A stretch of DNA of 63,998 nucleotides, filler included, from Folioceros fuciformis (lineage: Eukaryota), in the NCBI GenBank assembly GCA_049999805.1. It is 5 parts of 5 records of this genome, joined end to end, with 100 filler letters (N's around TTAATTAATTAA, not from the genome) between each part and the next. Parts side by side here need not be neighbours in the genome. Positions count along the whole stretch, not along the records: positions 36,943 to 47,238 come from JBNGIO010004598.1; 4 more parts are not named here. One strand, written 5' to 3'. Below the pieces are notes generated by a model. That model saw nothing but the letters and a program-made list of their open reading frames with translations. It was not told the DNA's origin and made no database searches. The position numbers were made by a program, and so were the translations under genes. Of this stretch, positions 17,667-58,822 are shown piece after piece; the stretch's first letter is position 1; the number at the start of each line of letters is the position of its first letter.

Positions 17667-20600
17667 ATGCAGTTCGCCAAGCTGGATGACTCTCCTATGT
17701 TCAGGAAACAGGTAGATATCTTGCCTTATTTTCTGTTGGCTGCTGCTGCGGAATGAAGCCATGCACTGATGTTGGTTGGGTTGCCTCAGCTTCAACAGCT
17801 GGAGGAGAGTGCGGAGGCTCTGCGCGACCGATGTCAGAAATTCTACAAAGGGTGCAAGAAATACACGTATTGTCCTGGACCCGTTGTTGAGGGAGGCAGG
17901 TACTGCTCTTGCTGGCTGAAGTCAGGTCAGCCAGGTGCGATGAGTACTGTGGGTGAACGCTGATGCAGGGACGGGCTAGGTGATGCGTACGATGGAGACC
18001 TTGCCTTTGCAGCTGCGTTGGAAACTTTCGGAGGTGGCCATGATGACCCTATTAGCGTGGCGGTCGGAGGTTGTGCTTTTTCCGTACTATGTTGTCGTGA
18101 CGTTGCTAGGATTGTAGGGCCTGGAAGGCAGCGCATAACATTGGATGGTCATCTTGCAGGCCCAGTGATGACCAAATTTACAATTGCTCTCCGAGAGATT
18201 GGCACCTACAAAGAAGTCCTTCGATCACAAGTAGGTGGCCACAGTGAGCTGAGGAAAGCTTGTTTCAGCTGAAGAAAGCGAAGATTTACTTGACGTGTGA
18301 TTGGATCATCTATCGCACTGTAGATGGGCTGCTCTAACTGTCTGCTAGCATCTCGGCCTTGACCGTCCGTGTTTTCTGGCATGTAGGTGGAGCACATGCT
18401 GAATGATCGTCTAACGCAGTTCGTGAGTGTGGATCTTCAGGACGTGAAGGTGTGTCCCCTCCTCAGTTTGCATCTTCTCTACCGTTCTCGAAAGCCCCTC
18501 TGTCGTTAGTGGGTCTGCAGGCTAATTTCTTCCTAACAACCAGCTGCCTATTTTTTGGGGTGACTGATCGCAGACTGTCAAGGTTGGTGACGCGCTTCAA
18601 ACTCAGGATATGCTGGCTTATTTTCTTCATAGCTGGTTATACTGCTTTGGTCTTTACGGCTCTATGCTGCAGGAGAAAAAATTGGTTAAATTCTTGTGTA
18701 GCTTTCTGGTGATGGTGATACTAGGGCATGTTCCAAGTCTGCAGCTAGCACGGCTATTACTTGGCCTCGAAACCATTGAAAGACTCGTTACGTAGGTGTT
18801 CCTGTAGGGTAAATCAGCAATAGCCCACTTGTAATATGGTTCAAGACTCTTGCTGTGTAGAACTCCAACCAGTGGTTCTTCCCACTCACTTTCCCAATCT
18901 CCACCACTTGTTAGATATTGAACAGTGTGCTACATAGTAAGGCAGGAGAACACGGTGCAGGTGAAATTTGTAAGAATTGTTACTCCAAAATCCATGCATG
19001 ATACCCGAGCTGCTGTTGATTTGCAGGAAGTCAGGAAACGATTCGATAAGGCCAGTCTGCAATATGATCAGGTAACAATGCCCCTATGAGCACCAACGCT
19101 TTCAATCTATCTTACCATCGAAGGTGCAGGCAGTTTTCTCTTTTGGAATGCCGGTTAGGAGCTGTTCTTGCTAGTAGGCTTTTCTGCATGTTCTTATTGA
19201 GCCCTGAAACAGGTTCGAGAGAAGTTCTTATCTTTGAAGAAAGATGCAAAACCTGATGTTATTGCTGAAGCTGAGGAGGTACGCCATCGTATTTCAGGCA
19301 TAACTCTTGTGGAGGTGAAGCGCTGTGCAGATGTCCTTTACATCGTGTGTCCACTCACATTTTGCATGACACTTGGCAGGACGTAAGGAATGCAAGGTCA
19401 CTGTTTGAGCAGACACGCTTCAATCTTGTATGTGATTAGAAACCCTTCAATAGGTCCAAGGGAAGAAAAATGGACAGATTCATAGACGCTGTATTTTTCC
19501 TTTGTTGTTCGATGTGGCCCTTGGTGATGATTTGCAGACTCTGCTTGCAGGTGACAGCTCTCTCAAACATTGAATCGAAGAAGAAATTTGAGTTTTTAGA
19601 ATCTGTGAGTGGTACAATGGATGCACATTTACGTTACTTCAAACAGGTGTGTCTCCTCTCCAGGATGCTTCTACGAAATTATTTCGTTTGTGTTGAAAAG
19701 CCAATTTTAAGGGCATTAAGCGGAACAAGTGGGTTGTACGCACGTGGGTACCTAGGGATATGAGCTACTCCATCAAATGGAGCCATACATTCATCAGGTA
19801 AGCCACTTGGTTTCTCGCTGTAGATCATTTTTTTTGCCTGCATTTGGTTGACCAAGCACATGCTAAATGAAATGGATTCATCAATACCCTTTGCACAGGT
19901 TCTCACATACGCACAACAATCTCGCGAGCGAGCTAATTTTGAGCAAGCAGCACTTGCAGACAGGATGCAAGAGTTTAGAAGGCAAATGGAAAGGGAATCT
20001 CTTCGCTCCAGTGATGAAGTGTCATCAGCCGGAGATGGTATTCAGGCTGTTGGGAAGAGTTCTCACAAGCAAATTGAAGCTGTGATGCAGTCAACTCCGA
20101 AGGGCAAGGTTTGGACAGTTTGTAGTTTGCGCCCGTGGGCTGGAGATAAGTTCTGTTTTGTTTCCTTGTTGACAGTGATCGTGCCTCCATTCCTACAGAT
20201 TCAAACAATAAAGCAAGGGTATCTACTTAAACGATCCTCCAATTTACGTGGTGATTGGAAACGGAGATTCTTTGTTCTCGATAGTCGAGGCATGCTGTAC
20301 TACTATCGAAAACAGTGGGGCAAGCCAACTGTGAGTCTATCTACTTGGCTTCTCCTGACATTGAAGGGACCTATGCTTGGGCCCAGATGCTTGCGACGGC
20401 ATTGTTGCTGAATCATCATGTGTAAGTCATAACATCCTTCTGAGATGCTGAGGTACTTCATCACGTGCTCCTTGAGACAATGCAGGATGACAAGACAATT
20501 GCACACCATACAGTTAATTTGCTTACAGCTACCATAAAAGTTGACGCTGAGCAGAGCGATCTTCGATTCTGCTTTCGAATAATATCGCCTACCAAGAACT

Positions 20601-22919
20601 ACACGCTCCAGGTGGGAGACCTTTTTGGTGCTTTCGGCACTTTGTTTAAGCTGTCACTTGTTTAAACGCAGCATTTGTCACCGTGACACCAAATGGGTTC
20701 TCATAGCGCATGATTGTACCTTTACTGCTAATGGCTCTGCTGTGCAAGCTGAGAACGCAATTAATCGAATGGATTGGATGCTCTATTGTGCAGGCTGAGA
20801 ACGCAATTGATCGAATGGATTGGATGGACAAGATCACTGGAGTGATTGCCTCTCTTTTAAATTCTCAAGTGTCAGACCAGGTAATGGACAAAGCCCCACA
20901 AATTATCGTCCAGATCTCCAGCACCTGAATTGAGCTTGATGATAAATTATGTTGGGACTCAGTGGAATCCTAGTGCTGCAGTAGAATGTTCGCGTGACTG
21001 AGAAGACGTTGTATTTACTTCAGAGGCCTCCTCGGAGTCCAATGTTGGGTCACAATCGCACGGCCAGTGAGAGCAGCTCTGTGGGCTCGGATTTTGAGCA
21101 TGTGACGCTGGATGAGAGGGGCCATTATTCAGCCCCTCGGCGTGACATCGCCTCCCGGGGCATGCAATTAACGTATCCTGGGCATGATTATCACGAGAGA
21201 CCCCTGGACATTTTGAGGCGCGTGGCCGGGAATGATGTCTGTGCAGACTGTGGTGCCCCAGATCCAGATTGGGCCTCCCTAAACTTGGGTATTCTTGTGT
21301 GTATAGAATGCTCAGGTGTACACAGAAACCTCGGGGTCCACATTTCCAAGGTCTTGTACACCGTCGTTTCCCTTTTCTGCATGATTGAGCCTTCATATGG
21401 TGTAGAGATGTCTTTCCTTTTTCCGTTCAATTGATTTGGCCTGTTCTGGTTCATAGGAAATGTGGATTCTATGGTATTGAAATTGAACGAAACTGATGAG
21501 GGGAAGTGCGTTGAGTGGACTATCAGTTTGGTTGTGTTTTTGTCGGTACAGATGCGTTCATTGACGCTGGATGTGAAGGTGTGGGAACCTTCAGTTCTTG
21601 GATATTTCCAATCCATTGGCAATCAGTATTCAAATTCAATATGGGAGGAGCTTCTTCCACGGTGGGAGAATGACAGAAGGGCTCGAAGTGCATCAACTGG
21701 TGGCATACTAGATAGGTGTATACGTGATCTACAACTATTTAGCGTAATTTTTAAATTATCTTTATTAGATTGCCATGTTGATTAGTGTACGTGTCTTTCA
21801 TGCTGATGCCTCAACCGCATTTGTGCTAACCCTGTCTTTGGTCTGCTGAGCAGGGCTGCTGACAGACCCTCTGTGGATGTGCTCAGAGTTAAACCAGATG
21901 CAAGGGATCCACTTCCGATCAAGGAAAGGTTTATTCAATCGAAGGTAGAATCATATCGTTGAGGTCTTCTAGTGAACAATTCATTTGTCCGTTTGTCTAT
22001 TTTCAACGTTCCGTGCTCTGGTTCCTTTCTCATGGCTGATTCAATTTGCTCTCAAGGAAGCAAGAAAGCTGCTGGTACTTGAGTAAGGTTATCGATGTGA
22101 AATTCTGACAATGGCCTTTTGTGGGCAGTATGTGGAGAAAAGGTTTGTGCAGAGACTGAAGTACGATCCTAGAGGTCCAACGGTGGCAAGAAGCATGTGG
22201 GATGCTGTTCAAGAGGGGAATAAGCAGATTGTACTCCGTCTGATAGTCACAGCAGATGGCGATGTAAATACCACGTATGAGCAAGCAATGGCTGCTGAAG
22301 GATCTCCTATTTCGCGTGGATCAAGTGGAGCCAGAAAGTTTCTGGATATGTCCAACAGCACCAGGAGCAGTTGGAGTGGCCCCATTGGTGTCGGCTCCAC
22401 GTCCCCCTCCTTAGTGCATTCACGGTCGGTTGCTTCTTCACTCACATCAAGCCCTGTCTCCAGGACTGTGGCTAACGTCGCAGCATCTAATGCTTTCCTG
22501 AAAATTGAAGTGGAGAAAGATATGCATGGGTGTACATTGCTTCACTTGGCCTGCCAGATAGGTATTCTGTCTATGGTGGAGCTGCTTCTTCAATACGGGG
22601 CTGCAGTCAATGCTACCGACCGATTGGGAAGGTCACCTCTTCATCACTGTATTCTATATGGCAAAAATTACTGTGCGAAGTTGCTGTTATCCAGGTATGC
22701 TCCTAAGCTAAACTAATCTGTAGTGTGGTGTAGTTGCAGTTGTCCTGCTGAGCTTTTTGGTACCTGACGAACGATTATGATCCGTTCTGTACTTGCAGAG
22801 GAGCTGACCCTTCAGCTGTGGATGGTGGAGGGAAGACTCCACTGGAGAGTGCTGTGGAGATAGGTGCTATTACGGACGAGGAGCTGTTCATCATGTTGGC
22901 AGAATCCGCACATAGCTAA
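17667..22919 (+). CDS. ACAP-type ARF-GAP (BAR-PH-ArfGAP-ankyrin), AGD1-4/VAN3-like
   Basis: [15 protein letters not shown] start; BAR exons; PH domain [24 protein letters not shown]; ArfGAP zinc finger [32 protein letters not shown]; ankyrin repeats GCTLLHLAC and GRSPLHHC; stop TAA 22917-22919. Confidence 0.93.
20734..20825 (+). repeat. 46-bp tandem duplication spanning an intron/exon junction of the ARF-GAP gene
   Basis: gctctgctgtgcaagctgagaacgcaattaatcgaatggattggat followed by gctctattgtgcaggctgagaacgcaattgatcgaatggattggat. Confidence 0.85.
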
Positions 22920-27136: not shown

Positions 27137-27236
27137 NNNNNNNNNNNNNNNNNNNNNNNNNNNNNNNNNNNNNNNNNNNNTTAATTAATTAANNNNNNNN
27201 NNNNNNNNNNNNNNNNNNNNNNNNNNNNNNNNNNNN
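27137..27236. other. Artificial contig-joining spacer
   Basis: 44 N + TTAATTAATTAA (stops in all six frames) + 44 N. Confidence 0.97.
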
Positions 27237-31419: not shown

Positions 31420-34400
31420 CGCGTTGGTTATGGTTAACTTAGCTAAACCCAGCGGGGTCATACCCTTTGGTATCTAGTATCGAAGAGGTACAACTCTTCA
31501 GGCTATAAAAGCCTACCTCTTGTAATCAATTTTATCAATTAGTAAAGCACTATCTTTGATCAAACGCTTCCGCAAAGCACTACAAACTTTAAACTTGGTA
31601 TCAGAGCACAAGTTTGATTACTAAGTTCATCATGCATTATAATGTGAATCTAAATGTTCTTCTAATATGTCTTTCTTATGCCTTTGGTATTTGTAATATG
31701 AAGTTATTTTCTACTTATTCATAGTTTGTCTTATATTCAACCATACATGTTTTTTTAATAAAATAGTTTGGCTTCTTCTATGATTAACTTTTATATTCAT
31801 TAAAGTTTCATGTCTAATTACCACTCTCATTCTTCAATCTTATTCTTCCAATGCTTCTAGCACTCTTATCATTCTCTCTTGCTCAAAACTTTGTTTCTTT
31901 ATCATTTCATTCAAAGTTATAACATGGCAAGAAGACACAATTACAAGAGTAATCAAGCTAAGAGAAGCGGAGAACCAGATAGGAGAAGGAAAAGTAGACG
32001 AAGTGTGCACCTTCGACGATCCTACTATCATAACAGGCTGAATTCTTCTTTGTTTAGTGTGCACCTTCGACGATCCTACTATCATAATAGGCTGAATTCT
32101 TCTTTGTTTAATACCCTAGGGAGTAAGATAGTCTACGTGCTATCCCGTTTCTTCCTAGAAAACGACTTTGTGTCATCTTTCACAAGAGGAGTTTCAAGCA
32201 ATCTAAGAATTCATCGTCACAACGTTCTAACTAGTCGGATCATCATCATACTATATCCTCTGCTAAGAAATGTGATTATGCTGAAGGACGAACCAAATCA
32301 TCTTCATCACCAGTTCCTCAACAAAATTCTCAATAGATTCAGCAAGTCAATCTTTCTCATTCCTCACATATGCTACAACACGAAAAGCTTGCTATCAGAA
32401 GAAAGCTGATCATGTCTCAACACAAGAGATTCCACCAGGTAGGGCGCCCTCCCATGGCGCTCCTTTTGATCCCCTAAAGTCCACATTTGAGTAGGCACAG
32501 GCTCCGATTTCAGTACACAATGTCGAAGCATCAAGAAATTTTGAGGAGGTGCCGTATGGCGCTGGAGCGTGCGCCGGCTGTGAGACTTGGCCAGCGTGGA
32601 CGCCCGTGCTGGGTGCCTCTACCCTCAGAAGCACGCCTCCTTCAGCCTTCAATCAGCCCGAGATTTCGAAGGATTTGACGCTGGAGGTTTCTGGTCGTTC
32701 AGTGCTGGTTCTGGACGGCGCCGGCTCAGATCTCTTACTAGCAAGGTCGCCTGGGATGGGTGCCCCTTCTGCATCTTGCGAACTTTAGATTGGAGAAGTT
32801 TCGGCCCAGATCGGCGGGGGTGAAATTCCAGGGGGGATCCGACGGTTATGCACGCGTTCACCTTGCTGAGCAGCGAAACGGTGCCCCAGCTGCCAACTTA
32901 AATCGAGTTTCTTATCGAGGGGGGGGGGGGCGTTTCTGACCCACCCAATGAAACTCATTTGGAGTTTCTTTCACAGGAGTATGAAACGGATCCCCCGTTT
33001 CTTACTGTTTTTGTCCTTTGATATCTCATTTTCTTGGCTTCGAACACTTGGGGTATCTGGTGGGGCCCACCTAGTGTGTTCCTCTGGATCTCCTACGTAC
33101 CTTTACAGCCCTCGCCTGCAACTATTCGGTGCTCCTCGCCTCCTTATACGCAGTCTCTAGCGGTGGAGTGTCCAGTTTTTCCAACTTCAGTCATCAAGCA
33201 AGAGCCCTTGTCGCCGCACTTTCAACCTGATGATCTTGCCACTCAGTGTTACCTTTATCAGCAAGCTGGTGCTACTCCTCAAGAGCTATTTCAACTGGAG
33301 TGTCATCATCTCTGGGATTATCTTAATCAGCTCTCTGAGTCGGTGCACTCAGTTGCCCAAGCAGTTCAACATCTTTCTACTGTTTATGGCCCTAGTAATC
33401 GTGGCATCATTCATTGGGCTACTTGACTTTCTGGACTTGTATTCGTATACCATTTGAGTTGATCCTATTCAAAATTTGATATATCAATATATATATATTT
33501 GAAGACTACTTGGCTTCTCGTCATAACTTGAAGTTGGCAGTCCTTTTCGTATTTATTTTCTGCTTCTATCTAATCACTATTGTTTGCTTGTATCACGATG
33601 GCTTCCTCATCAAACACGCCCTCTACTCCTATCATCAATTATATGAATGTGACTTCTGAATTCAAAGAGAAAGACCGTTTTGAGAGCACTAAGTTTGAGA
33701 TATGGTCCAAATGTATGCGTTCTGTCTTGAATACAAGAGATCTACTTGGCATAGTTGATGGATCTATCCTCAGGGTGGCACTGTTCGAGAGGCTCATCAG
33801 GCGGTAAATGCTGGCCGCACACCCAACATTTCCATCTCCAAAATTACCGGCGCTCTCCTTCAAGAGGAGGCTTCCAGATACAATGCCGGCACTTCGAAGC
33901 ATGGTGGTGAATGAGTTATGTTCGTTAGCAAGGTCGTCAACGCCACCAGCCTCACCAGCGACGTCGTCCTACTCCACCTAATAGACAACCCTTCACTGCG
34001 CCTTCTCCGGCTCCTAGTCGTGGACCTTCGGCATCCAAACCTGCTAGTTCTGGCCGCAAGCCCGGTACGTGCAATTGGTATCAAATACCAGGCCATTGGG
34101 AGCCTAACTGCCGCAAGAAGAAAGCTTGTGAGCCTCGATGTGCATCCAAGACTGCCAATACGGCCTCAACCTCCACGCAGAAACAGGCCGGCATTGCCCT
34201 CATAGTCTGCTTGGTAGCTTTTGAATATAAGACCTCTTGGCAATTGGATTCTGCTGCCTCCGCGCATACATGCTGCCATCGTCATATGTTTTCTGATTAT
34301 CTCCCTGCCAAAGATCAACGTTTTGTTCTTCTCGGCAACGACTCTGGCCTTACTATTGCGGGCACTGGCACTGTTACTTTTACTCTTGAAGATGGTTCTG

Positions 34401-36842
34401 TGCTTCTTCTAAGTGATGTGCTGCATGTTCCGCAAATGGCGAAGAATCTTATTTCCGTTCGACACTTGGTGAAGGACGGTACATTCCGGCTAGAGTTTGG
34501 AAGAGGTGATTGCCTCCTCACAAGATCTGTTGCTCCTGGTCGCGTGGTTGCCAGAGGTCGTCCGCAGCATGATCTCTATGTCTTCTCTGCCGTACCAGTG
34601 CTCACGGCTTCCTCGACCCCAGCTTCCGCAATGGCAACTGTGGTCGATAGAGGGAGTTCCCGCAAAGGTGACTCCCTATTATGGCATTCTCGGCTTGGAT
34701 ATATCAATCATGCTAAGCTTCTCGAGATGTCTAGGCAGGATTTATTTCAGGATAAGCTATCTCACTTTTCATAGACTCCACTATTATGTGAACCTTGTAT
34801 ATATGCTAAACAACGTAGTTTCTCCTATCCTACTTTCCTTGCCCGTCGGGCTACTCAGCCCTTGGAGTTGGTCTATGTTGATCTTTGTGGTCCACTTCCC
34901 GTCCTTTCACTTGGTGGTGCACCGCATTTTATGACTATTGTTGACGACTATAGTCGCTATACCTTTGCTATTCTGCTCAAGTTGAAGAGTGACTCCTTCG
35001 GCTCCTTTGCTCCTTTTGTCACTATGGCCGAGCCGCAAATCGGTTGCAAGCTTCGGTGTATTAGATCTAACAATGCAGGGGAACTAAATAACCGGCAATT
35101 TAAGGATTTCTGTCTTGAGAGGGGGATTCTTTGTCAATTTACGGTTCCCTACACTTCTCAACAAAATGGGGTTGCTAAAAAGGCCAACGGCGATCTGCTC
35201 GCCATGGCCTGCGCTATGCTAGCCTGCGCTCAGCTCCCCAAACCATTCTGGGCCGAAGCGAATAATACTGCAACGTATCTCCGCAACAGGGTACTTTCCA
35301 AGTCCGTTCCTGACCAGACACCCTTTGAGTCTTGGCATGGATATAAGCCTCTTATTACTCATCTTCGGATTTCCGGTTGCCCCGCCTATGCTAATATTCC
35401 TTCTCAGCTTCGCGACAAGCTTTCTGCTCGTGCTCGCAAGCTGGTATTTGTTGGCTATAGCGAGGACCGTAAGGCTTATAAACTGGTTGACTTGGATATT
35501 TATGCTATTGTATATGCTCGCACTGTCACTTTTGATGAGGCTCGGTTAGCATCTGCTCGTTCTGAGTCCATGGATTCTACTTCGGCTCCTTCAGACAACA
35601 CTACTTCTCCTAACCCAGGTGACCTTATGCCTGAGTTTTTAACTCAACCCTCTGTTTTTCCGGACTTTGGTCTTGCACCCACTACTCCATCCTTGGCCTC
35701 TTCACCTCAAGCACCACCTATCCCTATTGTTCCTGCTCGAGAGGGGGAAGATGAACAGGCCATTGTTGATCCTTATGAAAACAGAGAAGACTTTGGTGCT
35801 CTTAATCCACAAGACCCAGAGACTCTTCCTGCTCCACCTTCTCGTGTAACACTTGATCCAGCCCCTGAGCGAAGATATCCTTTGCGTCATCATCAACCAA
35901 GACACCTCTGGAATGAGATCCCCTTTGATTTAGAGTTCAATGAAGCTGGCTACACCACCACTGCTGCAGGTCACTTTAACGCCTTTAGTAATGCCCCTTC
36001 AAAGGGAGATCCTCTCACTCTGCAAGAGGCATATTCACGACCTGATGCAGCTAAGTGGAAGTTCGCTATTGATGATGAATATAATTCTCTTATAAAAAAT
36101 AATACTTGAACTCTAGTAAACTTGCCGAAAGGCAGAACTATTGTCAAATGCAAGTGGGTTCTCAAAACTAAATTCTAGGAAGTTGAACCTCGTATTCGCT
36201 ATAAGGCGAGACTAGTGGCTAAGGGTTATAGTCTGAAAGAGGGAGTGGACTATCAGGGCGATAAGGTTTATTCACCTGTACAATCAAGGCTGCTTCCGTG
36301 AGAATGCTCCTGGCTTTATGTGCCGAGCTTAATCTGGAAATTTATCAGCTTGATCTTTGTAATGCTGTCCTTTATGGTCATCTGCAAGAAGAGATCTATA
36401 TGGATCAACCAGAAGACTATGAAGATAAGCAATATCCAAATAAGGTGTGTAAACTTATTCGTTCTATTTACGGACTAAAGCAAAGCCCATGTTTATGGTA
36501 TGAGAGAATGGACTCTTACCTCAAGAAGATACGTTTTATCCAAAGTGAAGCAAACACCAATATCTATGTACTCCGCAAGGACAGCTCACTTGTACTGGTT
36601 GCTCTATATGTTGATGACTTAGTTATTCCTGGCAACAATATTGAACTAGTTAACAAGATTAAAGCTGACCTTAGTAAAGAATTCGAGATGAAGGATCTCG
36701 GCAAAGTTAAATATATTCTTGGTATGCATGTATATAGAGATACCACTGGTGCTATCTATCTCCATCAAGGAAGATATATAGCTGGATGCTAAAACGCTTC
36801 AATTTGGAGAATGCACGTGCGGCAGCCACACCTGGCGCCGTA
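31420..36842 (+). mobile_element. Degenerate Ty1/Copia LTR retrotransposon (putative 5' LTR, PBS, gag-PR-INT-RT), truncated at contig end
   Basis: tRNA-iMet PBS TGGTATCAGAGC 31596-31607; gag N-terminus at 33598 (FEIWSKCMRSVL..DLLGIVDG); degenerate zinc knuckle CNWYQIPGHWEPNC; protease WQLDSAASAH; LWHSRLG; integrase ELVYVDLCGP...QQNGVA; RT RYKARLVAKG, YVDDL; stops and frameshifts. Confidence 0.92.
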
Positions 36843-36942
36843 NNNNNNNNNNNNNNNNNNNNNNNNNNNNNNNNNNNNNNNNNNNNTTAATTAATTAANN
36901 NNNNNNNNNNNNNNNNNNNNNNNNNNNNNNNNNNNNNNNNNN
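36843..36942. other. Artificial contig-joining spacer
   Basis: 44 N + TTAATTAATTAA + 44 N. Confidence 0.97.
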
Positions 36943-37460
36943 GCCGCTGCGGGGTCGGAGGTGTGTAATGTTTTAGTCCTCTTCTGTGCCGTTTTGCGTT
37001 TTGTAGGTGGCAGGCTTTGCCGCGGGTGCTTGAGTACTGGGGAGCTGCTGTCGTTTCACTGTCGTGTAGGTTTTTTGTGCTTTCCTTTACGCGTATACGT
37101 TTCATTTTGAAATTGTGTTCACTGAGGCGGGTTTCCATCAAGTCCAGACTTTCTCTGCTTCCATCCTGGGAGATGGTTGATGTTCTTGGACGTTCTCCCT
37201 GGTTTTGGTGGTCTGGTGGCTGAAGGCTTTGTGCTTCGGTAGCACTAGGTTGTTTCAGCACTAGTTCGCGTCCTGGCAGGAGTCCTTTCAGGGTGTCGCG
37301 TTGGTATGTCATTTTCATTTCACTTCGTGTTGCGAGCTCACCTCATGTTGCTGTCCTTCAGGAGGGGGTGCTTGTTGTGTCCGGGGTTGTTGGGTTGGGT
37401 GGGGAGCCGGTGGTAAAATGCTACTGAGATCCGTTTGGACTTAGTGAGCATCCGGCGAGC

Positions 37461-38889
37461 ATGCCTACTGTGGGCGTAAAGCTTTCCAGCTGGCGCTACA
37501 AATTTAACCTCAAGCATTCTGTTGCTGAGAGGGATGGGAAGTATGTGAACCTGAATTTGGAACGCAGAGTTTCTCCCAATGCCTCTTTTGTGGATGGAGT
37601 TGCCACAAAAGACTGTGTTATTGATCCTGTGACGGCTCTCTCCATCCGCATATTTCTTCCTCAGAACAACCTTCAAATTGAAACAGCAGGGAATAGGGCA
37701 TTCAGTTGGCTCCCAGAAAGGGCCGTGCAGGAAGACGTTTTCTCTTACGGTCACTTAAATGGACGGAGATCTCTGGATGGTACTCCGAATGGGCGAGGTG
37801 TGGGCGGTCCTCAGAATGCATATGGAAGAGGGGTAAGTGGCATCACCAACGGGAGAGCGCGGGCAGATATGGACAAGTCGAGTGCCTTAGGAGCTTACTT
37901 TCCGAGAAGTGACGTCCAGTATGCAAAGATTCCAGTGATAGTTCAGTTCCATGACGGTGCTTTTATCAATGGCGGAAAGGACAATCCAGGAAATGACACC
38001 TTTTGTAGAAGAGTAGCTAAAGCATGTAAGAGCGTTGTCATAGCTGTAGGATATGGATTAGCACCAGAGAGCAGATATCCTGCACCCTCGCAGGACGGAG
38101 TTCTAACCCTCAAGTGGCTGGCTATGCAAGCGAACATTATCAACTGTACTCTGTCTTCAGGCATGTTCAGGTCTACTGCGGACAATTCTCTGCATTCTGC
38201 AAATGGCTTGATTGACTCCTTTGCACATATGATTGCAGACCCATGGATTGCTGCTCACGTGGACTTCTCTAGGTGTGTTACCCGTTCCTTCGGACTCTAG
38301 GCATAACGTAGCGTGCTGTCCCGCAAACTGACCAACTGATATGGTTCTTTCTGGTTGTAGATGTATGATTTTAGGTTCTGGGGCCGGAGGAAACATAGCT
38401 CAGCAGGTGACAAGGTCGGCAGTAAAACTGGGGAGGCAGCTGGAGCCTTTGAGTATTGTTGGTCAGATTCTAATATGCCCCTTTTTCGGTGGTATTCCAC
38501 CTCTTCCCTCGGAGGTTGCTCTCGCTGACACGTACTACATAGACAAAGAGACAATGCAGCTTGTGTGGAAGCTCGTGTTACCAGAAGGAGAGAACAGTCT
38601 CAATCATCCCGGAGTAGACCCCCTGCTGCCCGGTTGGGAATCGTCTTTGAGGAATATGCCTTCCTCCTTGGTGATAAGTGCGGAGCTGGACATGATGAGG
38701 GACAGGGCTGCAGCGTATGTGGAAGCTTTGAGGTCAGTGCATGTCGATGCCACTCTGGTGACGTACCGAAAGCAAGTTCATGGCTTCGCCACTATGGACT
38801 TTCTATTGAACACTAAGCCGGCCCAAGCATGTCTAGAGGATATTTCCATTTGGTTCGACAGGCGTGTGTCCCCCCAGTTTTTGAGTTAA
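37461..38889 (+). CDS. Carboxylesterase CXE11/CXE16-like alpha/beta hydrolase with altered active site; exons 37461-38272, 38361-38889 (~446 aa)
   Basis: MPTVGVKL...KFNLKH start, SFVDGVATKD, ND.FCRRVAK, AVGY.LAPESRYPA, AELDMMRDR, VHGFATMD; HGGG motif reads HDGA and GxSxG reads GSGAG. Confidence 0.88.
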
Positions 38890-42570: not shown

Positions 42571-43419
42571 GAAGCTATATATAAGTGCATGCGCAAGGCC
42601 TCACACCCTTCCTAGCAGCTCATAGACCACTCAAACATATGAGATCCTATTAGGATCACCAAGGGGCAGTGTCGTAATTAGACATCCTCTATTCAGCACC
42701 ACAAGTGGTGCCGCTAAAAGTAAGACAACCGTAGTCCAACCTCCCTCCTACTACACGGTCACTTCAGCAAATAGGGATCAAATGTTGACCAAAATCTTGC
42801 TCTCGTTGGTCATACTCACCTCCACAACTGAATGTCTACACTCGGCCTTACTTCCTAGGCTCTCGTAAAACAACCACTCTTCATTGTGCAAGTACTTGTA
42901 ATAACTAGCATTTATTGGACAACACTCACATCCACTTGTTTGTTATAGCCTATTGATTGCTTCTTTCCCTTTTATGCCTTATGGACACGAGAGAGACACA
43001 CCTTATCCATGGCTATATCACTTGTTATGTACATCCCAAAACACAAGCACTCCCAATTCTTGCACACCCATTTCATGAGCATGCAGCTCATGCATGTGGA
43101 AACATCTTCACCCGTCACAGTGGAGCCTTTCTAGCAATAGAAATGCTTCAAATAGGCTCCACTAACTAGTTATTCCTCACGTAGCTCTAGCGGTTTGAGA
43201 TCATTGTAGCTCCTTGTTCAATGTTTCCTTGATTAAGTATAGTCCCTCCCACCTTAGTTTTAATTTTGATGTAGGCTCTGTCGTGCTTCAAGAGGTCTTG
43301 CTCCTCAACATCTGAACTTGACCCTAGAAGTCTTTGAACACTCATATATATATTATATATATAGCATGCATTGATATGAATATGGGGTGGCCAGCCCCTA
43401 TATGATATATGCATATATT

Positions 43420-43754
43420 CTTGTCAACAGTGCACCTGGATGCCTCCCCTTGAGTGCTTCCTCTCCGTCGTGCACACCAAGGCTACTGGTCATCCTGGCA
43501 CTCTTTGGTGGTTTACTACACACGAGATCGACGAAAGGAGTAGCCTATCTCTACTCCTCCTCCCTCGATGTGAGTTCAGTGATCACACTCATAATTCTTG
43601 GATGCCTCCCCTTGGATGCTTCCTCTCCGTCGTGCACACCAAGGCTACTGGTCATCCTGCCACTCTTTGGTGGTTTACTACACATGAGATCGACGAATGG
43701 AATAGCTATCCTCTACTCCTTCTCCCTTGCTGCGACACCTTCACTCCCCCCCTT
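43420..43754 (-). repeat. Polypurine tract and start of the putative 3' LTR with a 162-bp internal tandem duplication
   Basis: PPT then TG at 43743; two copies starting tggatgcctcccct at 43437 and 43599; distal LTR boundary uncertain. Confidence 0.6.
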
Positions 43755-43834: not shown

Positions 43835-44023
43835 TTACAATGTATCAACTGCTACACACATTGAACAAAACCATTGCCTATTTGGCACTACTTCTAGCAC
43901 AGGCTCTAAACAAAAAGTATGCCACCCATCATTGCACCTATCACACAACAACATGCAATGATCACCTGCAGGATCTCCACAACCTATATAAGCGAACCCC
44001 TTCCTTGGCACAAAAGCTTGCAC
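43835..44023 (-). pseudogene. PHD finger at the C-terminus of the Gypsy integrase
   Basis: YIGC..........CDRC...WHTFCL..........WFCSMC fits C4HC3; first Cys codon reads TAT. Confidence 0.85.
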
Positions 44024-44126
44024 ATCNNNNNNNNNNNNNNNNNNNNNNNNNNNNNNNNNNNNNNNNNNNNNNNNNNNNNNNNNNNNNNNNNNNNNNNNNN
44101 NNNNNNNNNNNNNNNNNNNNNNNNNN

Positions 44127-44765
44127 TATTATCCTACTCGCACTTGTATCAATTGTTGTCATCGTCTTCCTCTGCAAATATACATAATCTCCGACTTCAA
44201 ACTTTTTCACCTTAGGCCTGAAATGTCCACTTCTTGTTTCCTTGTATCTTAGCTCATCCCTATGTTGAGCTATTAACAAATTATCCATTGCCATAAGCAT
44301 TATTTTTGTAAACAACTCTGCTCTGTACGTGACTATCTTTAACCACTTATTAGGATCGTCCAAATCCACTATAGCATTCACCTTGTCTTCTAACATCCCA
44401 GATAACTGTGGTCTACGCCCAAACAACAACATGTACAGTGAAAACTTTCCCAGCGATGCTTGCCTACTCATCCTACAACCCATCGCAAGAAATGGTAACA
44501 TCCTATCCCACTCACTCTTGTCCATTACCAAACAATATTTCCTCAAAGCACTCTTACATGTCTATATCATTTTGTCTGCTAAACCATCAGCCTCCGGGTG
44601 ATTTCTTGAAGTTACCCTATGATCAATAAGGTACTCATTTAAAAATTCATCAAATTCTCCCATAAATTTAGTGCCTTGATCTATTAGAACTTCTGCACAA
44701 GCCCCAAAAACACTCAACACATGATTGAGAAATGCTTCCTTAATATCATGTGACTTTTATATATA
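44127..44765 (-). pseudogene. Gypsy integrase core/C-terminal region
   Basis: VFGACAEVLIDQGTKF, HPEADGLA, WDRMLP, LLFGRRP, FEVGDYVYL. Confidence 0.85.
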
Positions 44766-44769
44766 ACTT

Positions 44770-45830
44770 AAACTTTTTGTCCAAATTAGGTCTTGTCAAC
44801 AAGGGCTTCCTCATCAAAATGTCCTTTATCTCCTTAAATGCTCTCTGTTGATCTTCTCCCTAAACCCACAATGCATCTTTCTTTAACAACTTTGTCATTG
44901 GTTTTACCACCACGTTGTGGTTTGCCACAAAATTGCGATAATAATTCACCAATCCTAAAAAAGAACGCAAAGTCCCCAGATCAGAAGGTGGTATCATTTT
45001 TGCTATCGCTTCAACTTTATCATCAGATGGCGCCGTACCCCTAGGCACTATAAAATATCCCAAATATGCTATCTTAAAGAACCCAAACCTGCACTTTTGT
45101 GGATGACACGTCAAACCAACCTCTTTCAGTCTATCCAACACTTGCCAAACGTGCTCCTTATGTTCTTCCGCACTGCTACTAAAGGTTATTACATCATCTA
45201 TGTAACATTTGGTGAATGACAAACCTCTCAGTGCTTATCCATCGCTCCTTGAAAAGCACAAGGAGCATTCTTCAATCCAAATGGGATAACCACCCATTCC
45301 CACAAACATCTATTACCCCAAAAAGCAGTCTTCTTCTTATCCTCCTCCTCAATTTCAATTTGATTAAAGCCACCCCTCAAATCCAATGTTGATAATATAT
45401 TACATTCACCAATTGCATCAAAAATCTCCTCTGGAGTTGGCATTGGATATCTATCCATAGGCGTCACCTCATTAAGCGGTCTATAGTCACCACACATCCT
45501 CTTTTCTGTCCAATTACCATGCACATCCTTCTTTGGTGGGAGCACCATAGCTGATGCATACTCTGATTCCGAAGATCTTATCAATCCAACTTCAAGCAGC
45601 TCTTGACATTTCTTGTCCACAATCTCATTCTCCAATTTTCTCAAACGATATGGCCTTCTAAAAACCGGGTCAAAAGTTTTAAGCCGAATCTTAAACTTAG
45701 ACGTCTTGTGCCTGCCCAATTCCTTATTGGAAAAAGCAAATACCTGCCTGCTACTTTCCAAAATCCTTACAAAATCCTCCCTATCCTCCAAGGTTATCTC
45801 ATCAGAAATATCCCACTGAAAATCCATACA
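44770..45830 (-). pseudogene. Gypsy reverse transcriptase (frameshifted)
   Basis: RRPYRL, KRMCGDYRPLN, LDLRGGFNQI, KTAF, PFGLKNAP..FQ..MD, YIDDV, YLG, LRSFLGLVNYYRNFV. Confidence 0.93.
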
Positions 45831-46089
45831 CTCGTGTTTCTCACAGACGTTAACCTCACAGCTTGAGCTAGCCACATTCCCAGCTTTTCTTTCTGCATCT
45901 ACCACCTTTGCCCCATATCTCATTTGATTGCTCTACTTGCACTCATCACCTAAAACCTCATCATGCTCTCTCATTCTCTTAGTCTCCCCCCCAGCGTCTA
46001 GGCCTTCATTTCTTCTTACTTTACCCAGACTACGTCCTTCCAACCTTGTGCTTAAAATAACTTTCCACTTTCTCTTCCACTCCTGATAA

Positions 46090-47226
46090 ACCTTTATAGA
46101 CATCATAAGCCATCTGACTGTACTCAAATCCATAGCTTGTCCGAGTTTTTTATTCCTCTGCTCAAATGTTATGCCCTCCACTTGAGTAGCATTTGTATCA
46201 AAACCCATCGCCCTCTCTCTCCATAGGAGATGGCACATCCCACACCTTCCTCTTCATATCAAATATCATCCCAGGCTCTTCCCCTTTAAATGCATTGGTG
46301 CCCTCAAAACTTACAAATGTCGGTAATGCCCTCCTAAGCTCCCCCTTTTTATTTACACAATAAAAAGGCTGTCTATCATATGAAGTCACCTGCCTACTCA
46401 CTTGCCCCTCATCTAATATCTGATCAACTATTAAATCATCATCCCTTCGTCACTGACTCACAAGCATCTGCAACAAATGCCTAGGCATCATGTTATTCCA
46501 AACACAACGATGCATGTGAGCCCTAGATCCAAACTGCACTGCATCCAACTTTATAGGTTCACCCAAATAATACTTGATCTCCTCAAAATCTCGCCTCAAC
46601 ACTACTCTTCTATCCATTTGGGAATCCACATTCTCAATAAACAAACCACATTCTTTCTTCTGATGCTTTTGCACCAAATTCAAAATCCTAATTAGCTCAT
46701 AAAATAACACCAACCTATTATCCAACAAGCCTTTTCCCTTGCTTGCCATTGAATGCCCTTGACATTCCCAGCCAGCTATTATCATATCAACTTCTTCCTC
46801 CATTTGAAATTGTACCAATCCAATAAACCTAACATCTTGCGGCCAAACATAAAACGCTTGCTTCACAACTTCAACCTTTAATTGCTCAGGATACTTTTTG
46901 CATAATTTAAATACCCTTGCCTTCGCAATTGCCTGACAAACTTCATCTGGATCACAATAAATGTAACGTCTGACCACATACCCAGTAGCCAACACAGCCT
47001 CCAGACTAGATGCAATCCCAGCAAACAACTCAACCACAACCAATCCATACTTAGACGAACTCAATATCACAAGTTTATTACACACAAGTTCAAGTTTGCA
47101 AACTGCTTCCTTTGTACAAAGCTGAATTTTATCATCTAGTTGAAACTCAGTCTGTCGTTTTTCAATCTCTCTAAAAATTTCAGCTAATGCTCTACCAAAA
47201 TTTTCTCTCATTGCGATTTCCTCCAC
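46090..47226 (-). pseudogene. DNMT3-like cytosine-5 DNA methyltransferase domain within the retrotransposon pol (one stop, one frameshift)
   Basis: Motif I ELFAGI, II YCD, III QDV, IV GWECQGHS, VI FIENV, VIII DAVQFGSRAH.HR.VW.N, IX ERERAMGF, X LGQAMD; stop at 46450 and a 2-nt loss in an (AG)n run at ~46215. Confidence 0.9.
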
Positions 47227-47238
47227 TTTGTTATGACT

Positions 47239-47338
47239 NNNNNNNNNNNNNNNNNNNNNNNNNNNNNNNNNNNNNNNNNNNNTTAATTAATTAANNNNNN
47301 NNNNNNNNNNNNNNNNNNNNNNNNNNNNNNNNNNNNNN
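47239..47338. other. Artificial contig-joining spacer
   Basis: 44 N + TTAATTAATTAA + 44 N. Confidence 0.97.
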
Positions 47339-47639: not shown

Positions 47640-48960
47640 ATGACGAGTGTGCGGAAGAGTGGGAGTAAAGGGCACGAGGAGCCTAAGACGCCCCAGGAGG
47701 AGAAGGCCAAGGTACTAGATGGAGGGGATCTGTAATGGTCGGTGTTCGCTTAATTTGTGCTTGTCGCGGCCTTGTTGATTGGAGGCTTCTTCTGGTTGCC
47801 TGTTCAGGTTGACGCGTTGCGGACAGCTATTGGACCACTATCTAGGCGTTCTGCACAGTACTGTTCCGATGCTTGCTTAAGTAGGTATTTGCGGGCTCGC
47901 AATTGGAATCCCAAGAAGGCTGAAAAGATGTTAAGGGAAAGTCTAAAGTGGAGGGAGTCTTATAAGCCTGAGTCTATTCGATGGGTAAGACAGATGTCAC
48001 CTCTGGGCCTTTAGGTTCGTCCCTGCTGTCTTGGACAAGGAGCGGTGTCACGTGGGATGTGCTTCTTGTCTCTGCCTCTTCATGTTGCGTCTTCTGCTTC
48101 TTCCAGGAAGATGTCGCTGGCGAGTCGGAAACGGGAAAAGTGTACAGGTCTAGCTTTTTTGACAAGCAGGGGCGGACTGTTCTGGTCATGCGACCTGGAA
48201 ATCAGGTATGATTTTGGGGAAAAGTGCAACCAATGTAACGTGTGAATGTCGAACCCAGCGTCACCGGTTTTTTCTTTGTCTTGGCAGAACACCAATTCTC
48301 ATGACGGTCAGATCAAGCAACTTGTCTACTGTTTAGAAAATGCAATACTTAATCTTCGCGAAGGACAAGAGCAGATGGTTTGGTTGATTGACTTCAAAGG
48401 TTGGACTGTGAAGACTACCACGCCTATAAAAACAACCAGGGAGACAGCGTACATTCTGCAGAATCATTACCCGGAAAGGCTTGCTGTAGCAGTTTTGTAC
48501 AACCCTCCTAGGATTTTTGAGACCTTTTGGGCGGTAAGCTTCCTTTGCTGTTTCTATTTCGGAGGTGTTTCATCCCATGAAGACGGGACAGTAACCGTGG
48601 TAGTGCCTGCACCTGTCGCAGATTGTCAAGCCTTTCCTGGACCCAAAAACATTCCGGAAAGTGAAGTTTGTGTACACCAAGGATCCTGAGAGCCAAAAGC
48701 TGTTGGATGACCTTATTGACGCAGACAAGCTGGAAGCTGCATTTGGAGGGACAAACACTGCCACGTATTCTCATTCTGAGTATGCCAAGATGATGCGCGA
48801 AGATGATGTAAAAACAGCGCTGTATTGGAAACTGGGCACTCCTGTTGCACAACATTTGCCTGCTAACGGTGATTCCAAGTCAGAAACAGCAGTCTGGGAC
48901 GGGCAGTGTGGGGAGGTTCAAACTCCTCCAGAACATGTTGGTGTGAGTGTAAGCGCTTAA
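47640..48960 (+). CDS. Sec14/CRAL-TRIO phosphatidylinositol transfer-like protein (5 exons)
   Basis: CSDACLSRYLRARNWN..KAEKML, ETGKVYR...DKQGRTVLVMRPG, LVYCLENAI, EQMVWLIDF, LQNHYPERL, KPFLDPKT..KVKFVY. Confidence 0.92.
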
Positions 48961-52735: not shown

Positions 52736-54688
52736 GTGCCTTTAAAGCCTACCCTGCCTGCCGCCTTCGTACCACAAAACCCTGGCCTACCAATGTCCTA
52801 CCACGATGATTCCATACACAAAACAACCCAAAAGTTTTTTTACAATCCTTTTAAAACCATCAAAAGGTCTCAACTGAATTGTGGACCACATCTTCTGGCG
52901 AGGATATAATTTTTTTATAAATTCAGAATTCTATTAAACCAGGTACAACACGTATAGGACAAGAACAGTGTTAATTAAAGATTTTTCCTCCAATCAAAAA
53001 TCACATAAGGAATGATGTCATTGAAATTCTCATGCGTGCCTGAACATAGCATATATGTTGACACGGCCTCATTGGTTACCCTGTATATCAAAATTTTATT
53101 TTATGTTTTGATATTATTTTTAAATATGTATTATCAAAGTCTCCAAGTTTATTAGACTTCTTTTCTCCTTTTGAGAGCTACCTAGTCCCCTTCCCCTTTG
53201 GCCTTGGACCCTCCTAAAGTTGTTCCTCCTTATTCTTTTTTAGGTAGATGAAATCTTCATCTTGTAGTGAAGTATTTTTTTTCCTTATAAGTAAATTTTA
53301 TATCTTTGAATAATTATGAAAGGATTTTTTTAAGAATAATGATAATGTAAGATTCATCTCCTTGTTTCTCAAGTTGCTATTTTGAGCAACTAGTTTAAAG
53401 ACATGTGTTTAGGCTTAAGATAGATACTAGACCTTGTCTACTAGATAACTTAAAGATGATTTTTTTTTCAATTAGATTTGTCAACACAACAAAACAAGTT
53501 AAAGACTAGACCTTGTTGTCTAAATAATGCTTTTTGCTCAACATGACCTCCCAACTTTTTGAGTGATACAAGCCACATTCTCTATTGTAATGTAATGAGG
53601 TTTCACCTTTGGACTAAGATCAGTTAGTCCGATGTTAGTCCTTTAGTGTGCATGGCACACTGCTCAATGGAGTCTCTCTTTGGACTTGGACTGACCTTTT
53701 CATAGGCCAATGTTAGTTCTTCACTATCCCATGCACACTACTCATTACAGTCTCTCATTGGAGCGACATTTTCATAGGCCGATGTTAGTCCTTCATTGTC
53801 TCATTGGAGTCTCTCTTTGGACTAATATTTTCATAGGCCGATGTTATCCTTCAAGGCCCCGTGCACACTACTCATTGGAGTTTCTCTTTGGACTGACCTT
53901 TTCGTTGGGCGATATTAGTCCTTCAGACTCCCATGCACATTGCTTATTGGAGTCTCTCTTTGGAATGACCATTTCATAGGCCGATATTAGTCCTTCAGAG
54001 CACCATGCACACTAGTCACTGGAGTTTCTCTTTGGATTGACCTTTTCATAGGCCGATGTTAGTCCTTCAGAGTCCCTTGCACACTGCTCATTAAAGTCTC
54101 TCTTTGGACTGACCTTTTTATAGATTAATGTTAGTCCTTCAGACTCCCATGCACATTGCTCATTGGAGTCTCTCTTTGGACTAACCTTTAATAGGTTGAT
54201 GTTAGTCCTTCAGAGTCCCATGCACACTGCTCATTAGAGTCTCTCTTTGGACTGACCTTTNNNNNNNNNNAGTCCCATGCACACTGCTCATTAGAGTCTC
54301 TCTTTGGACTGACCTTTCATAGGTTGATGTTAGTCCTTCAGAGTCCCATGCACACTGCTCATCGGAGTCTCTCTTTGGACTGACCTTTGTCCTTCAGAGC
54401 CTCATGCATACTGCTCACTAGAGTTTCTCTTTGGACTGACCTTTTCCTTATCTAGATAGAACATATTTCTATTGTAGCTTTCGTCATTACCATATAGGAC
54501 ATAGCTCTCAATCTATGAGAATGTTGTTCAAAGATAGTACATCTACTAAGATTCACAAGTATCCATCATAAATTGATGATTCTCAACTACCTTGATGATT
54601 CTAGCAAAGATATATAGGTTCCTTTTATCAATTGTGTTGTGTTGTACTAGTGTCATAGGTAGGCTTTAAAGGTAGGCTTTAAAGGCAC
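52736..54688. mobile_element. Inverted-repeat-bounded non-coding element
   Basis: Perfect 18-bp inverted pair gtgcctttaaagcctacc (52736-52753) / ggtaggctttaaaggcac (54671-54688); no TSD seen. Confidence 0.5.
53620..54445. repeat. ~72-bp tandem repeat array (~11 copies)
   Basis: Unit gatgttagtccttcagagtcccatgcacactgctcattggagtctctctttggactgaccttttcataggcc; ttagtcc recurs at 53915, 53987, 54059, 54131, 54202. Confidence 0.92.
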
Positions 54689-56499: not shown

Positions 56500-57465
56500 C
56501 ATAACTCCAAGTGCCATTCAGTCCTAAAATACAACTCACCTTGAAAAGAGCTACATACCATTATAATCCACTCATTGATCTCTACAAGCTTATGTTTTCA
56601 CATTTTCATTTGAATGAAAGATGACCTTTGAAACAGCTTCAAAATTGCAGACTTCCACATTGTTTCTTAAGTTTTGAGCAGACCTTGAAGTGCCATTCAG
56701 TCCCAACATACGATTAATCTCGAAAGGAGCTATATACCATTAAAATCCTCTCATTGTGCTCTACAATTTTGTGTTGTCAGTTTTTGATTCGGATGATCAA
56801 TGATGTCTGAAACAGCTCTGAAATTGCAGTCTTCCAAATAGTTTTTTAAGTTCTTAGCAAAAATTCAAGTGCCATTCAATCCCAACGTACGATTAATCTC
56901 AAAACGAGCTATATACCATTAGAATTCTCTCATTGTGCTCTACANNNNNNNNNNNNNNNNNNNNNNNNNNNNNNNNNNNNNNNNNNNNNNNNNNNNNNNN
57001 NNNNNNNNNNNNNNNNNNNNNNNNNNNNNNNNNNNNNNNNNNNNGCTATATACCATTAGAATTCTCTCATTGTGCTCTACAAGTTTGTGTTGTCATTTTT
57101 TCATTCGAATGATCGATGACGTCTAAAACAGCTTTGAAATTGCAAACTTCCATATAGTTTTTTAAGTTCTAAGAAAAAATTCCAGTGTCATTCAGCCCCA
57201 ACTTACGGTAACTCTCAAAATGAGCTGTATACCATTAGAATTCTCTCATTAAGCTCTACAAGCTTGTGGTGTCAGTTTTCATTGGAATGAACGATGACGT
57301 GTGAAACAGCTCCGAAATTGCAAACTTCTAAGTGAATAAGTCAGCAAATGCGTTTGTTGTTTTTGAAAGAAGTCTCTTATTAAAATCCAAAAGTGAGAAT
57401 ACGATCTTGCACAGGTAGACAAGCTGATTCTAATGGTATATAGCTCATTTCAAGATTAACCGTTG
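56500..57465. repeat. ~179-bp tandem satellite between the two Harbinger ORFs, with an inverted partial copy
   Basis: aagtgccattca recurs at ~56508, 56687, 56866 and (after a gap) ~57183; 57428-57465 is the reverse complement of the unit core (gagctatataccattagaat). Confidence 0.88.
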
Positions 57466-57503: not shown

Positions 57504-58430
57504 CTATTGTTCTTGTCTTTGTCTACGCCAATGCTTGACTAAGGCATTGTGTTGAACCAGTGTAATACTCTTCACAGCCTCTTCCTCCACACTTGTCAAG
57601 ATTATAGGAACATTATGTGGTAGAGGATACTCATCCACCCCTGGTTCCGAAGGTTTTAACTCACTAGCCACAATGCAAAAGTTGTGCAAAACACAACAAG
57701 CAGCCACTGTCTTCGCAACATATTTCACGTGGACGTTGAGGTTCTTCAATATTCTCCACCTGTTCTTTAATAAGGAGAAAGCATTCTCAATGACAAATCT
57801 TCCAGAAGAAAAGGAAGAGTTGAATGCTTTCAACTCATTCGTAAGCATTGTGAAGCCTTTCATAAGAAAAGGTCTCAAAGGATACGCAGAGTCACCAATG
57901 ATGTAAGGAGGTACTAGAACTCCCTCCACTTCAATGATTGGCCCTACAAATATCCCTCTAGTGATAAGGCGTTGCCATAAGCTACTATTCTGAAGAATGC
58001 CAGCATCATTTGAACCTCTTGGACTATTAGCACATATATCAATGAACATCTTCTGGTTGTCACATATGGCTTGCACAAACCATGCAATGCATATTGTATC
58101 ATTTGCAATGATAAGCTGCTGGAGTGTATTGCTCCGCTGGATTGGTGGCAAACTTGATAAGAGATCCATCTATAGCACCAATAATATTAGGCAATAGGGT
58201 CCGGCGCTCAAATGCTGTTGATATGTCTACCTGTTGACGAACTGATGGAATGGTGATAAATGAAGAATATAGCTTGGCAGGGTCACTTTAGATGGAAACA
58301 ATGAGTTTAGTATACTCAATAACTGTGGCATCACCAACACCATATTTCAAAGCAACGGTGAGGGAAGGTAGACCCCTGCCAGCCTATGCAGCACTAGAGC
58401 AATAGCTTTATCATATGGTATAGATGTTTG
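57504..58430 (-). pseudogene. PIF/Harbinger (HARBI1-like) DDE transposase, degenerate
   Basis: IIGAIDGS, VQAICD, GSNDAGIL, IIGDSAYPL, RFVIENAFSLLKNRWRIL, ACCVLHNF; frameshifts upstream. Confidence 0.9.
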
Positions 58431-58722: not shown

Positions 58723-58822
58723 NNNNNNNNNNNNNNNNNNNNNNNNNNNNNNNNNNNNNNNNNNNNTTAATTAATTAANNNNNNNNNNNNNNNNNNNNNN
58801 NNNNNNNNNNNNNNNNNNNNNN
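58723..58822. other. Artificial contig-joining spacer
   Basis: 44 N + TTAATTAATTAA + 44 N. Confidence 0.97.

Follow-up and report, generated by a model that had tools for sequence, protein, structure and literature searches.

A conserved PHD finger at the integrase C-terminus of Ty3/gypsy retrotransposons that encode a DNMT3-like methyltransferase, from a decayed copy in Folioceros fuciformis

Background

Is a PHD finger encoded next to a retrotransposon integrase a genuine part of the element's polyprotein, and if so, what does it do there, in an element that also encodes a DNA methyltransferase? This question is raised by a locus in Folioceros fuciformis (assembly GCA_049999805.1), which lies in the stretch of DNA analysed here (63,998 nucleotides, filler included; hereafter the window). 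A first-pass annotation of the window described a C4HC3 PHD finger located beyond an assembly gap at the end of the integrase, and proposed that it stands in place of a chromodomain and that the polyprotein couples recognition of the histone H3 tail with cytosine methylation.

Results

The window copy and its decay

The annotated stretch is pol's 3' end in a decayed Ty3/gypsy retrotransposon, which extends on the minus strand from 47238 to 43279 and comprises a C5 methyltransferase, a reverse transcriptase (RT), the C-terminal part of an integrase and, past a gap of 100 N, a PHD finger, in this order; gag and protease are cut off at 47239-47338. The DNMT3-like C5 cytosine methyltransferase (45933..47205, minus strand) exhibits the motifs ELFAG, GWECQ and ENV, matches the Pfam family DNA_methylase at 46453-47205 (1e-7), and is interrupted by a stop codon and a frameshift near 46215. 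It is followed by the RT with the first residues of RNase H (44761..45932, minus strand; RVT_1 matches of 1e-12 and 1e-9, frameshift near 45235), by a deletion junction at 44754..44760 (minus strand), and by the C-terminal part of the integrase core with the start of the C-terminal domain (44127..44753, minus strand; one internal stop), in whose frame the GDYVYL motif lies at 44192-44175 (minus strand). Comparison with sibling copies indicates that about 1 kb has been lost at the junction: relative to the sibling L030, most of RNase H, the integrase zinc finger and the start of the core are absent, and several siblings retain this stretch.

Beyond the gap (44027..44126), translation and Pfam place the end of pol, consisting of a linker, the PHD finger and the stop codon, at 43835..44026 (minus strand). 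It is a single open stretch on the minus strand, from 44026 to 43835, with the motifs CDRC, WHTFCL and WFCSMC, and its first and eighth ligands span 43990-43856 (minus strand); the Pfam PHD family PF00628 is matched with an E-value of 7e-9 and 36 bits, over a cut-off of 24. The annotated motifs, their strand and the domain assignment are thus borne out, but the finger of this particular copy is incomplete, as its ligands read YCCCHCCC, with seven of the eight zinc ligands kept and the first one replaced by Tyr; counted at fixed positions, all eight ligands are present in 12 of 21 siblings. The distance given earlier from the finger to the polypurine tract is also correct: the stop codon of pol (43837-43835, minus strand) and the purine tract, recognized from the sequence at 43738..43754 (minus strand), are 80 nt apart. 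The tract is followed by the 3' repeat B (459 nt; 43279..43737, minus strand), which includes an inner 162-nt tandem duplication (43735-43599 and 43573-43437), and the element terminates with ...CACGACA at 43279, the point at which 14 siblings diverge from the window sequence. With stops and frameshifts throughout, a deletion of about 1 kb and a Tyr as the first zinc ligand, the window copy is dead, and the working polyprotein envisaged in the first-pass annotation cannot come from it.

Sibling copies close the gap in frame

If the 100-N placeholder is taken at face length, the integrase and PHD frames appear shifted. The corresponding stretch, however, is 123 nt long (41 codons) in 20 of 21 sibling contigs and 124 nt long in one, so that in the family the integrase and the PHD finger share one frame; two of the 21 siblings have a stop within it. 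The 41 codons encode the remainder of the SH3-like C-terminal domain of the integrase, which is strand-rich in a structure model of a related family. The in-frame fusion, which the first-pass annotation had left to be confirmed by gap closure and by collecting family copies, is therefore upheld at the family level: the finger occurs at the same place and in the same frame in 20/21 siblings, and a related family (C, below) has a frame that runs over 2,386 codons without interruption. A finger out of frame, an unrelated insertion or absence from the family, the findings named in advance as contrary to the proposal, were all looked for and none holds at that level.

Families in the genome

Searched at the DNA level, the same genome returned 82 matches from 40 scored candidates, a methyltransferase query gave 154 matches, and with an INT-PHD tail query all 150 of 150 scored candidates matched, these numbers counting pieces rather than element copies. 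At least three families can be distinguished: A, old and represented by the window copy; B, whose copies are about 99% alike; and C, with the 2,386-codon frame comprising a gag-like region, protease (PR), DNMT3-like domain, RT, RNase H (RH), integrase (INT) and PHD. The frame of family C is found whole in a contig of the public run X1, with 18 differences and no gaps over 7,245 bases; the run may derive from the same material as the assembly, and what it confirms is the frame. A search for expression listed no RNA data set. The PR-RT-RH-INT order, a polypurine tract, a CA end and the 4-bp target duplications described below identify the elements as Ty3/gypsy, and the finger is present on the integrase of other families of this genome in addition to that of the window. 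The DNMT3-like domain is unpermuted, lies inside the pol frame, keeps its catalytic residues and is under purifying selection; in family C its PDB matches are exclusively DNMT3A/B/C (29 sequences, best 1e-10), and the polyprotein encodes its own protease between gag and the methyltransferase.

Five young copies of family B (L047, L050, L051, L096 and L099) carry five distinct internal deletions with overlaps of 7-20 nt, all of which remove RT and all of which are apparently in frame; frame length was the reason for choosing three of the five, and collapse of the assembly favours copies with deletions. The integrase tail of family C (L042:8746-9366) is 72% identical to that of the liverwort Calypogeia fissa (P0089/P0091) and only about 50% identical to those of families A and B, a closeness that may reflect either old coexisting lineages or horizontal transfer.

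A clade of the green lineage

A protein search with the INT-PHD tail yielded 74 long proteins among 336 candidates, including those of the chlorophytes Cymbomonas, Hariotina and Tetradesmus; 71 of them contain the PHD finger, 69 a methyltransferase and 66 both, and in 71/74 the finger directly follows the integrase. Another 571 shorter proteins pass 1e-15, and the 120 listed include Sphagnum sequences and those of C. fissa, which show 72% identity along the tail; these fragments exhibit INT-PHD and not the methyltransferase. A profile search extended the set to 647 clusters at 1e-30, with the finger directly after the integrase in 139 of 142 new representatives at 50% identity. Since the queries were INT-PHD tails, the PHD counts are favoured and the frequency of integrases without PHD is not measured by them.

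The position of the methyltransferase varies, and the finger is present with either position. In the long relatives that have a methyltransferase, it lies directly 5' of the integrase in 68/69 cases, as it does in 57 of 65 informative new representatives. In the genome studied here, on the other hand, it lies after the protease and before RT, at a distance of about 1,000 residues from the finger, and in four of the 74 long relatives the PHD is retained with no methyltransferase detected. The families of this genome, Calypogeia and P0015 form one branch in a quick integrase tree (SH-aLRT 99), and the rows with the methyltransferase before RT also group in a FastTree tree of the DNMT domain (94). 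The simplest reading is a single relocation of the methyltransferase, with the finger staying on the integrase; the trees are unrooted, so the direction of the move can only be suggested.

In a small unrooted FastTree integrase tree, the clade branches apart from six further gypsy frames, one of them chromodomain-bearing, all taken as controls from the same genome. Pfam finds no chromodomain in the family C frame, one weak match among 15 relatives, and none among the matches listed for 40 further relatives. The statement that the finger stands in place of a chromodomain thus fits its position at the integrase C-terminus only. Taken together, the sequences point to an old green-lineage clade, whose integrase ends with an SH3-like domain and a PHD finger, usually with a DNMT3-like methyltransferase in pol. 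Some algal-type members also contain a G-patch (P0003, P0014, P0039, P0279), one (P0058) has a weak chromodomain 3' of the PHD, and many carry a tail of 250-400 residues with no Pfam match.

The finger is constrained and resembles readers of unmethylated H3

Relative to family C, the PHD has a median pN of 0.17 (pS 0.82), the integrase core one of 0.15 (pS 0.82), RT one of 0.13 (pS 0.80), and the methyltransferase one of 0.26 (pS 0.77; 5 rows); synonymous sites are saturated, so these values indicate strong constraint rather than exact ratios. The comparison took in 18 of 30 INT-PHD loci (24 rows at 18 distinct places, six counted twice), near-identical and short ones being left out. On this sequence comparison, the PHD is as constrained as the integrase core and evolves under purifying selection.

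The best PDB matches of the finger are PHD1 of KDM5D/Lid/KDM5A/B, WSTF, KMT2C/D, BAZ2A/B, UHRF1/2, ORC1b and ATXR5, and the fold matches of its model (pLDDT 75) include structures of BAZ2A and UHRF1 bound to unmodified H3. Pattern matching identified a complete finger in 105 of 195 proteins. None of these 105 has an aromatic residue two positions before the His, which we take to be the site of the Trp that accommodates methylated K4, while 99 have an Asp after Cys3. An acid occurs at position Cys3-5 in 54/105 fingers and at -5 or -6 in 83/105, the acidic-wall position having been placed by alignment to the PDB hits. The window subfamily has a His at this position and an acid (Asp) one residue earlier, which makes the assignment to unmethylated H3 weaker for it. 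In this class of fingers, the acidic wall excludes the Trp for methylated K4, and K4 methylation weakens binding, as described in PMC5415848. Beyond the zinc ligands, surface residues of the H3-reader type are conserved from chlorophytes to bryophytes, and an additional Cys/His motif is conserved 5' of the finger. Hence, by sequence and structure model, the finger appears to be of the unmethylated-H3 reader type (the KDM5 PHD1 / BAZ2 / UHRF1 class), in agreement with the earlier suggestion that it is of a kind that reads the H3 tail.

Split repeats and probable self-priming

The ends of these elements are unusual. In family C the order is A1 (470 nt), the internal part, the purine tract, B1 (111 nt), GC, A2 and B2, and the same A1..B1-A2-B2 split repeats occur in family B; the arrangement A..B-GC-A-B in a DDE-integrase element can be followed at G000:C6246:203899-213509 (L054, L108), in L099 and, for its 3' part, at 43279-43754 of the window. 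The B1-A2 join is a palindrome consisting of the right end, two bases and the left end, in family B and many relatives as well. Target duplications of 4 bp were found at all three places where both flanks were read. Of 14 siblings, 12 end after B1, as does the window copy, and two continue via GC into A. A conventional LTR pair was considered for the window family and rejected, as the 3' repeat was not found at the 5' ends, which is explained by the split repeats. Solo A-B copies were observed at C5473 and C3150.

In three copies of family C, the bases immediately after A1 are complementary to a site within A for 21, 18 and 17 nt, with one compensating change and with the site downstream of a TATA-like stretch, and over 14 nt after the 5' repeat in family B (14-21 nt overall; L108, L042, L046 and L044). 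Inspection by eye of the same four loci revealed no tRNA-type primer site. This complementarity is likely to serve self-priming, by a mechanism like that of Tf1, which primes itself. Tf1-like self-priming has been mentioned for Tcn1 (PMC6317226). The cDNA repeat would then be B-GC-A, and the integrase would cut the internal palindrome; the permuted form A-B-A..B, which equal cutting of the two junctions would predict, did not turn up among the 5' ends examined.

CpG depletion and the remainder of the window

At codon junctions of family C, 42 CpG are found against 179 expected (0.23 of expectation), with no loss of CHG. This depletion was rejected as a sign of self-methylation, since four of six other gypsy frames have values of 0.25-0.29, and copia frames range from 0.16 to 0.69; L139, a gypsy frame with no room for a methyltransferase, has a similar CpG loss. 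In young copies, transitions amount to 0.18 per site at CG, 0.17 at CHG and 0.03 at CHH, a pattern that fits ordinary host silencing. The chromodomain-bearing gypsy L140 (G000:C6244) exhibits the opposite depletion, with CHG at 0.15 of expectation and CpG at 0.98.

Elsewhere, the window contains a Myb exon (6684-7178, minus strand), PH and ankyrin exons (19824-22713, plus), a decayed copia element (33929-36800, plus), an alpha/beta hydrolase gene (37428-38886, plus), a CRAL-TRIO protein gene just past the join beside the element (about 47800-48960, plus), a 72-nt tandem array (53578-54444), a 179-nt repeat (56550-57463) and a DDE_Tnp_4 transposase of the Harbinger type (57507-58169, minus). 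The joins at 27137-27236, 36843-36942, 47239-47338 and 58723-58822 all consist of 44 N, 12 bases and 44 N; the 12 bases (TTAATTAATTAA at 47283-47294) are probably an assembly linker. The genome also contains a DELLA domain, which to our knowledge is specific to land plants, LEAFY, and a weak LCIB match (29 and 26 bits, over the cut-off). LCIB has been reported from hornworts and algae and from no other land plants, and hornworts have DELLA (PMC8075897). On these genes, we regard the host as hornwort-like.

Discussion

What the finger is for

With the fusion, its frame and conservation, the reader class by sequence and fold, the clade and the DDE-type insertion established, we consider it fairly probable, on sequence grounds, that the finger tethers the integrase to H3K4-unmethylated nucleosomes, away from active promoters, with the methyltransferase acting as a separate module. 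The element's protease would release a mature integrase that still carries the PHD; the finger would bind histone H3 at its N-terminus as long as Lys4 carries no methyl group; and the tethering would put the integration complex on nucleosomes outside promoters marked with H3K4me3. The finger would thus do the job of a chromodomain by another rule, shunning an active mark instead of seeking a silent one. The methyltransferase, presumed to be active, would probably be freed by the protease as well. As most chromatin is H3K4-unmethylated, the gain from such targeting may be small. A weak test is provided by the flanks of the element ends, which match other fetched repeats in 9 of 24 cases, versus 7 of 35 window tiles, with three of the nine lying partly within their own locus.

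A second explanation, which we judge unlikely, is that the PHD acts like the ADD domain of DNMT3 and recruits or activates the methyltransferase of the element at nucleosomes unmethylated at H3K4, with the result that the element itself methylates its new insertions or their flanks. The ADD domain binds the same ligand as that predicted for the finger. Both domains co-occur in 66/74 long relatives, and since the methyltransferase usually adjoins the integrase (68/69 and 57/65), DNMT-INT-PHD could be one product; the catalytic Cys is kept in 67, EN in 66 and RxR in 64 of 70 methyltransferases, whose purifying selection is noted above (pN 0.26 at pS 0.77, 5 rows). Of the five young deleted copies that lack RT, four keep both methyltransferase and PHD, but they are a biased sample from a collapsed assembly. 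Against such coupling, the methyltransferase of the bryophyte clade has moved before RT, some 1,000 residues away, the finger persists in the 4/74 relatives with no detected methyltransferase, and other gypsy frames (4/6, at 0.25-0.29) match the element's CpG loss of 0.23. The enzyme of KnitGypsy-Dnmt3 was inactive in yeast, albeit inconclusively (PMC5890265). A predicted complex of methyltransferase and PHD, run with no alignments, scored 0.01 and speaks neither for nor against coupling. Of the earlier proposal of a reader and a writer in one polyprotein, the presence of the DNMT3-like domain in the same frame therefore stands, while their coupling is disfavoured by a methyltransferase that is distant, moved or lost.

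The finger could alternatively have a non-histone role, binding a host protein or nucleic acid, or stabilizing the integrase complex, for instance when the internal palindromic junction is cut. Certain PHD fingers do have partners other than H3 (PMC10124903), and the unusual end structure of the clade, the extra conserved Cys/His motif before the finger and the lack of the exact acidic-wall residue in the window subfamily would suit such a role; we regard it as doubtful, given that the H3-reader surface is conserved from chlorophytes to bryophytes and that the nearest solved relatives are H3 readers. Speculative, and improbable in our opinion, is a composite in which the clade has rebuilt the DNMT3-ADD logic, the PHD steers both insertion and methylation, and self-priming together with cutting of the internal palindrome explains the split repeats; every new copy would then be placed in silent chromatin, and marked as such, by the element's own proteins. 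That the finger came from the host as a captured fragment, or is an insertion beside the gap that is unrelated to the element, with no role, might be suggested by the unsequenced gap and the missing ligand in the window, but is highly improbable in view of the purifying selection on the finger and of its occurrence in other families and hundreds of clusters elsewhere, and at the family level is ruled out by its same place and frame in 20/21 siblings.

The preferred explanation, tethering of the integrase, predicts a targeting rule, namely that H3K4me3 is avoided. A hornwort with maps of H3K4me3, H3K9me1, H3K27me1/3 and the methylome exists (PMC10952607), which makes testable both the site choice of a non-chromovirus gypsy and the purpose of a retrotransposon's own DNMT3.

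Comparison with known systems

The closest known system is KnitGypsy-Dnmt3 of Klebsormidium nitens, described by de Mendoza et al. in 2018 (PMC5890265) and compared here by description. As in the present clade, the DNMT3-like domain in its gypsy pol is intron-less, unpermuted and under purifying selection, and its terminal repeats are 'as in DIRS' together with gypsy domains, which matches the A..B-A-B arrangement. However, the text of PMC5890265 does not mention a PHD (0 hits), though its Fig. 4c could show one, and the element is described there as an acquisition of the K. nitens lineage, whereas the present clade spans chlorophytes and all three bryophyte groups. No methylation was obtained in yeast with the Klebsormidium enzyme, a result called inconclusive by its authors. 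Our INT-PHD-tail searches gave no K. nitens sequences among the matches listed, and a query with the P0015 methyltransferase matched only itself.

The idea of a reader plus a writer is already published for EpiLTRs (bioRxiv 10.64898/2026.05.21.726589), LTR retrotransposons that likewise combine a histone reader with DNA methyltransferases. Their reader, however, is a chromodomain, and their enzymes, DAM and a sister of DNMT4, are located at the end of pol; Pfam detects neither DAM nor a chromodomain in the family C frame, which is thus not an EpiLTR, and the EpiLTR authors themselves separate EpiLTRs from streptophyte Gypsy-DNMT3. In REM1 of Chlamydomonas and in CR1-like elements, the PHD has been proposed as an accessory domain that guides integration, but the integrase of REM1 is truncated and reversed and carries a chromodomain, and no methyltransferase is mentioned in these sources (PMC6673714, PMC8557442, PMC2774666). 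Retrotransposon PHDs as such have been termed widespread (PMC6673714, PMC8557442, bioRxiv 2021.11.30.470311). In chromoviruses (PMC6317226), too, a histone reader follows an SH3-like domain at the C-terminus of the integrase; the present clade differs in having no chromodomain, in forming a separate branch and in its predicted reading of unmethylated H3K4. Identity with Selgy/Phygy was rejected, by description only, on the basis of the text of PMC6317226, which has no PHD.

We found no paper that describes a gypsy element combining DNMT3 with PHD, or such an element in bryophytes, although one could be contained in Fig. 4c or supplement 1 of PMC5890265 or in the bioRxiv supplements; the texts of PMC11982613 and PMC10508981 gave nothing on such elements. 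A methyltransferase-bearing gypsy had been described from one charophyte alga (PMC5890265), and a 2019 opinion piece stated that transposon methylases do not occur in land plants such as tracheophytes (PMC6338049). Such elements are young and abundant in the hornwort-like genome studied here, and they have close INT-PHD relatives in a liverwort and in Sphagnum, as well as a wide clade in algae. Each ingredient has a precedent, and the value of the present case lies in the breadth of the clade, its land-plant host and a targeting rule that can be tested.
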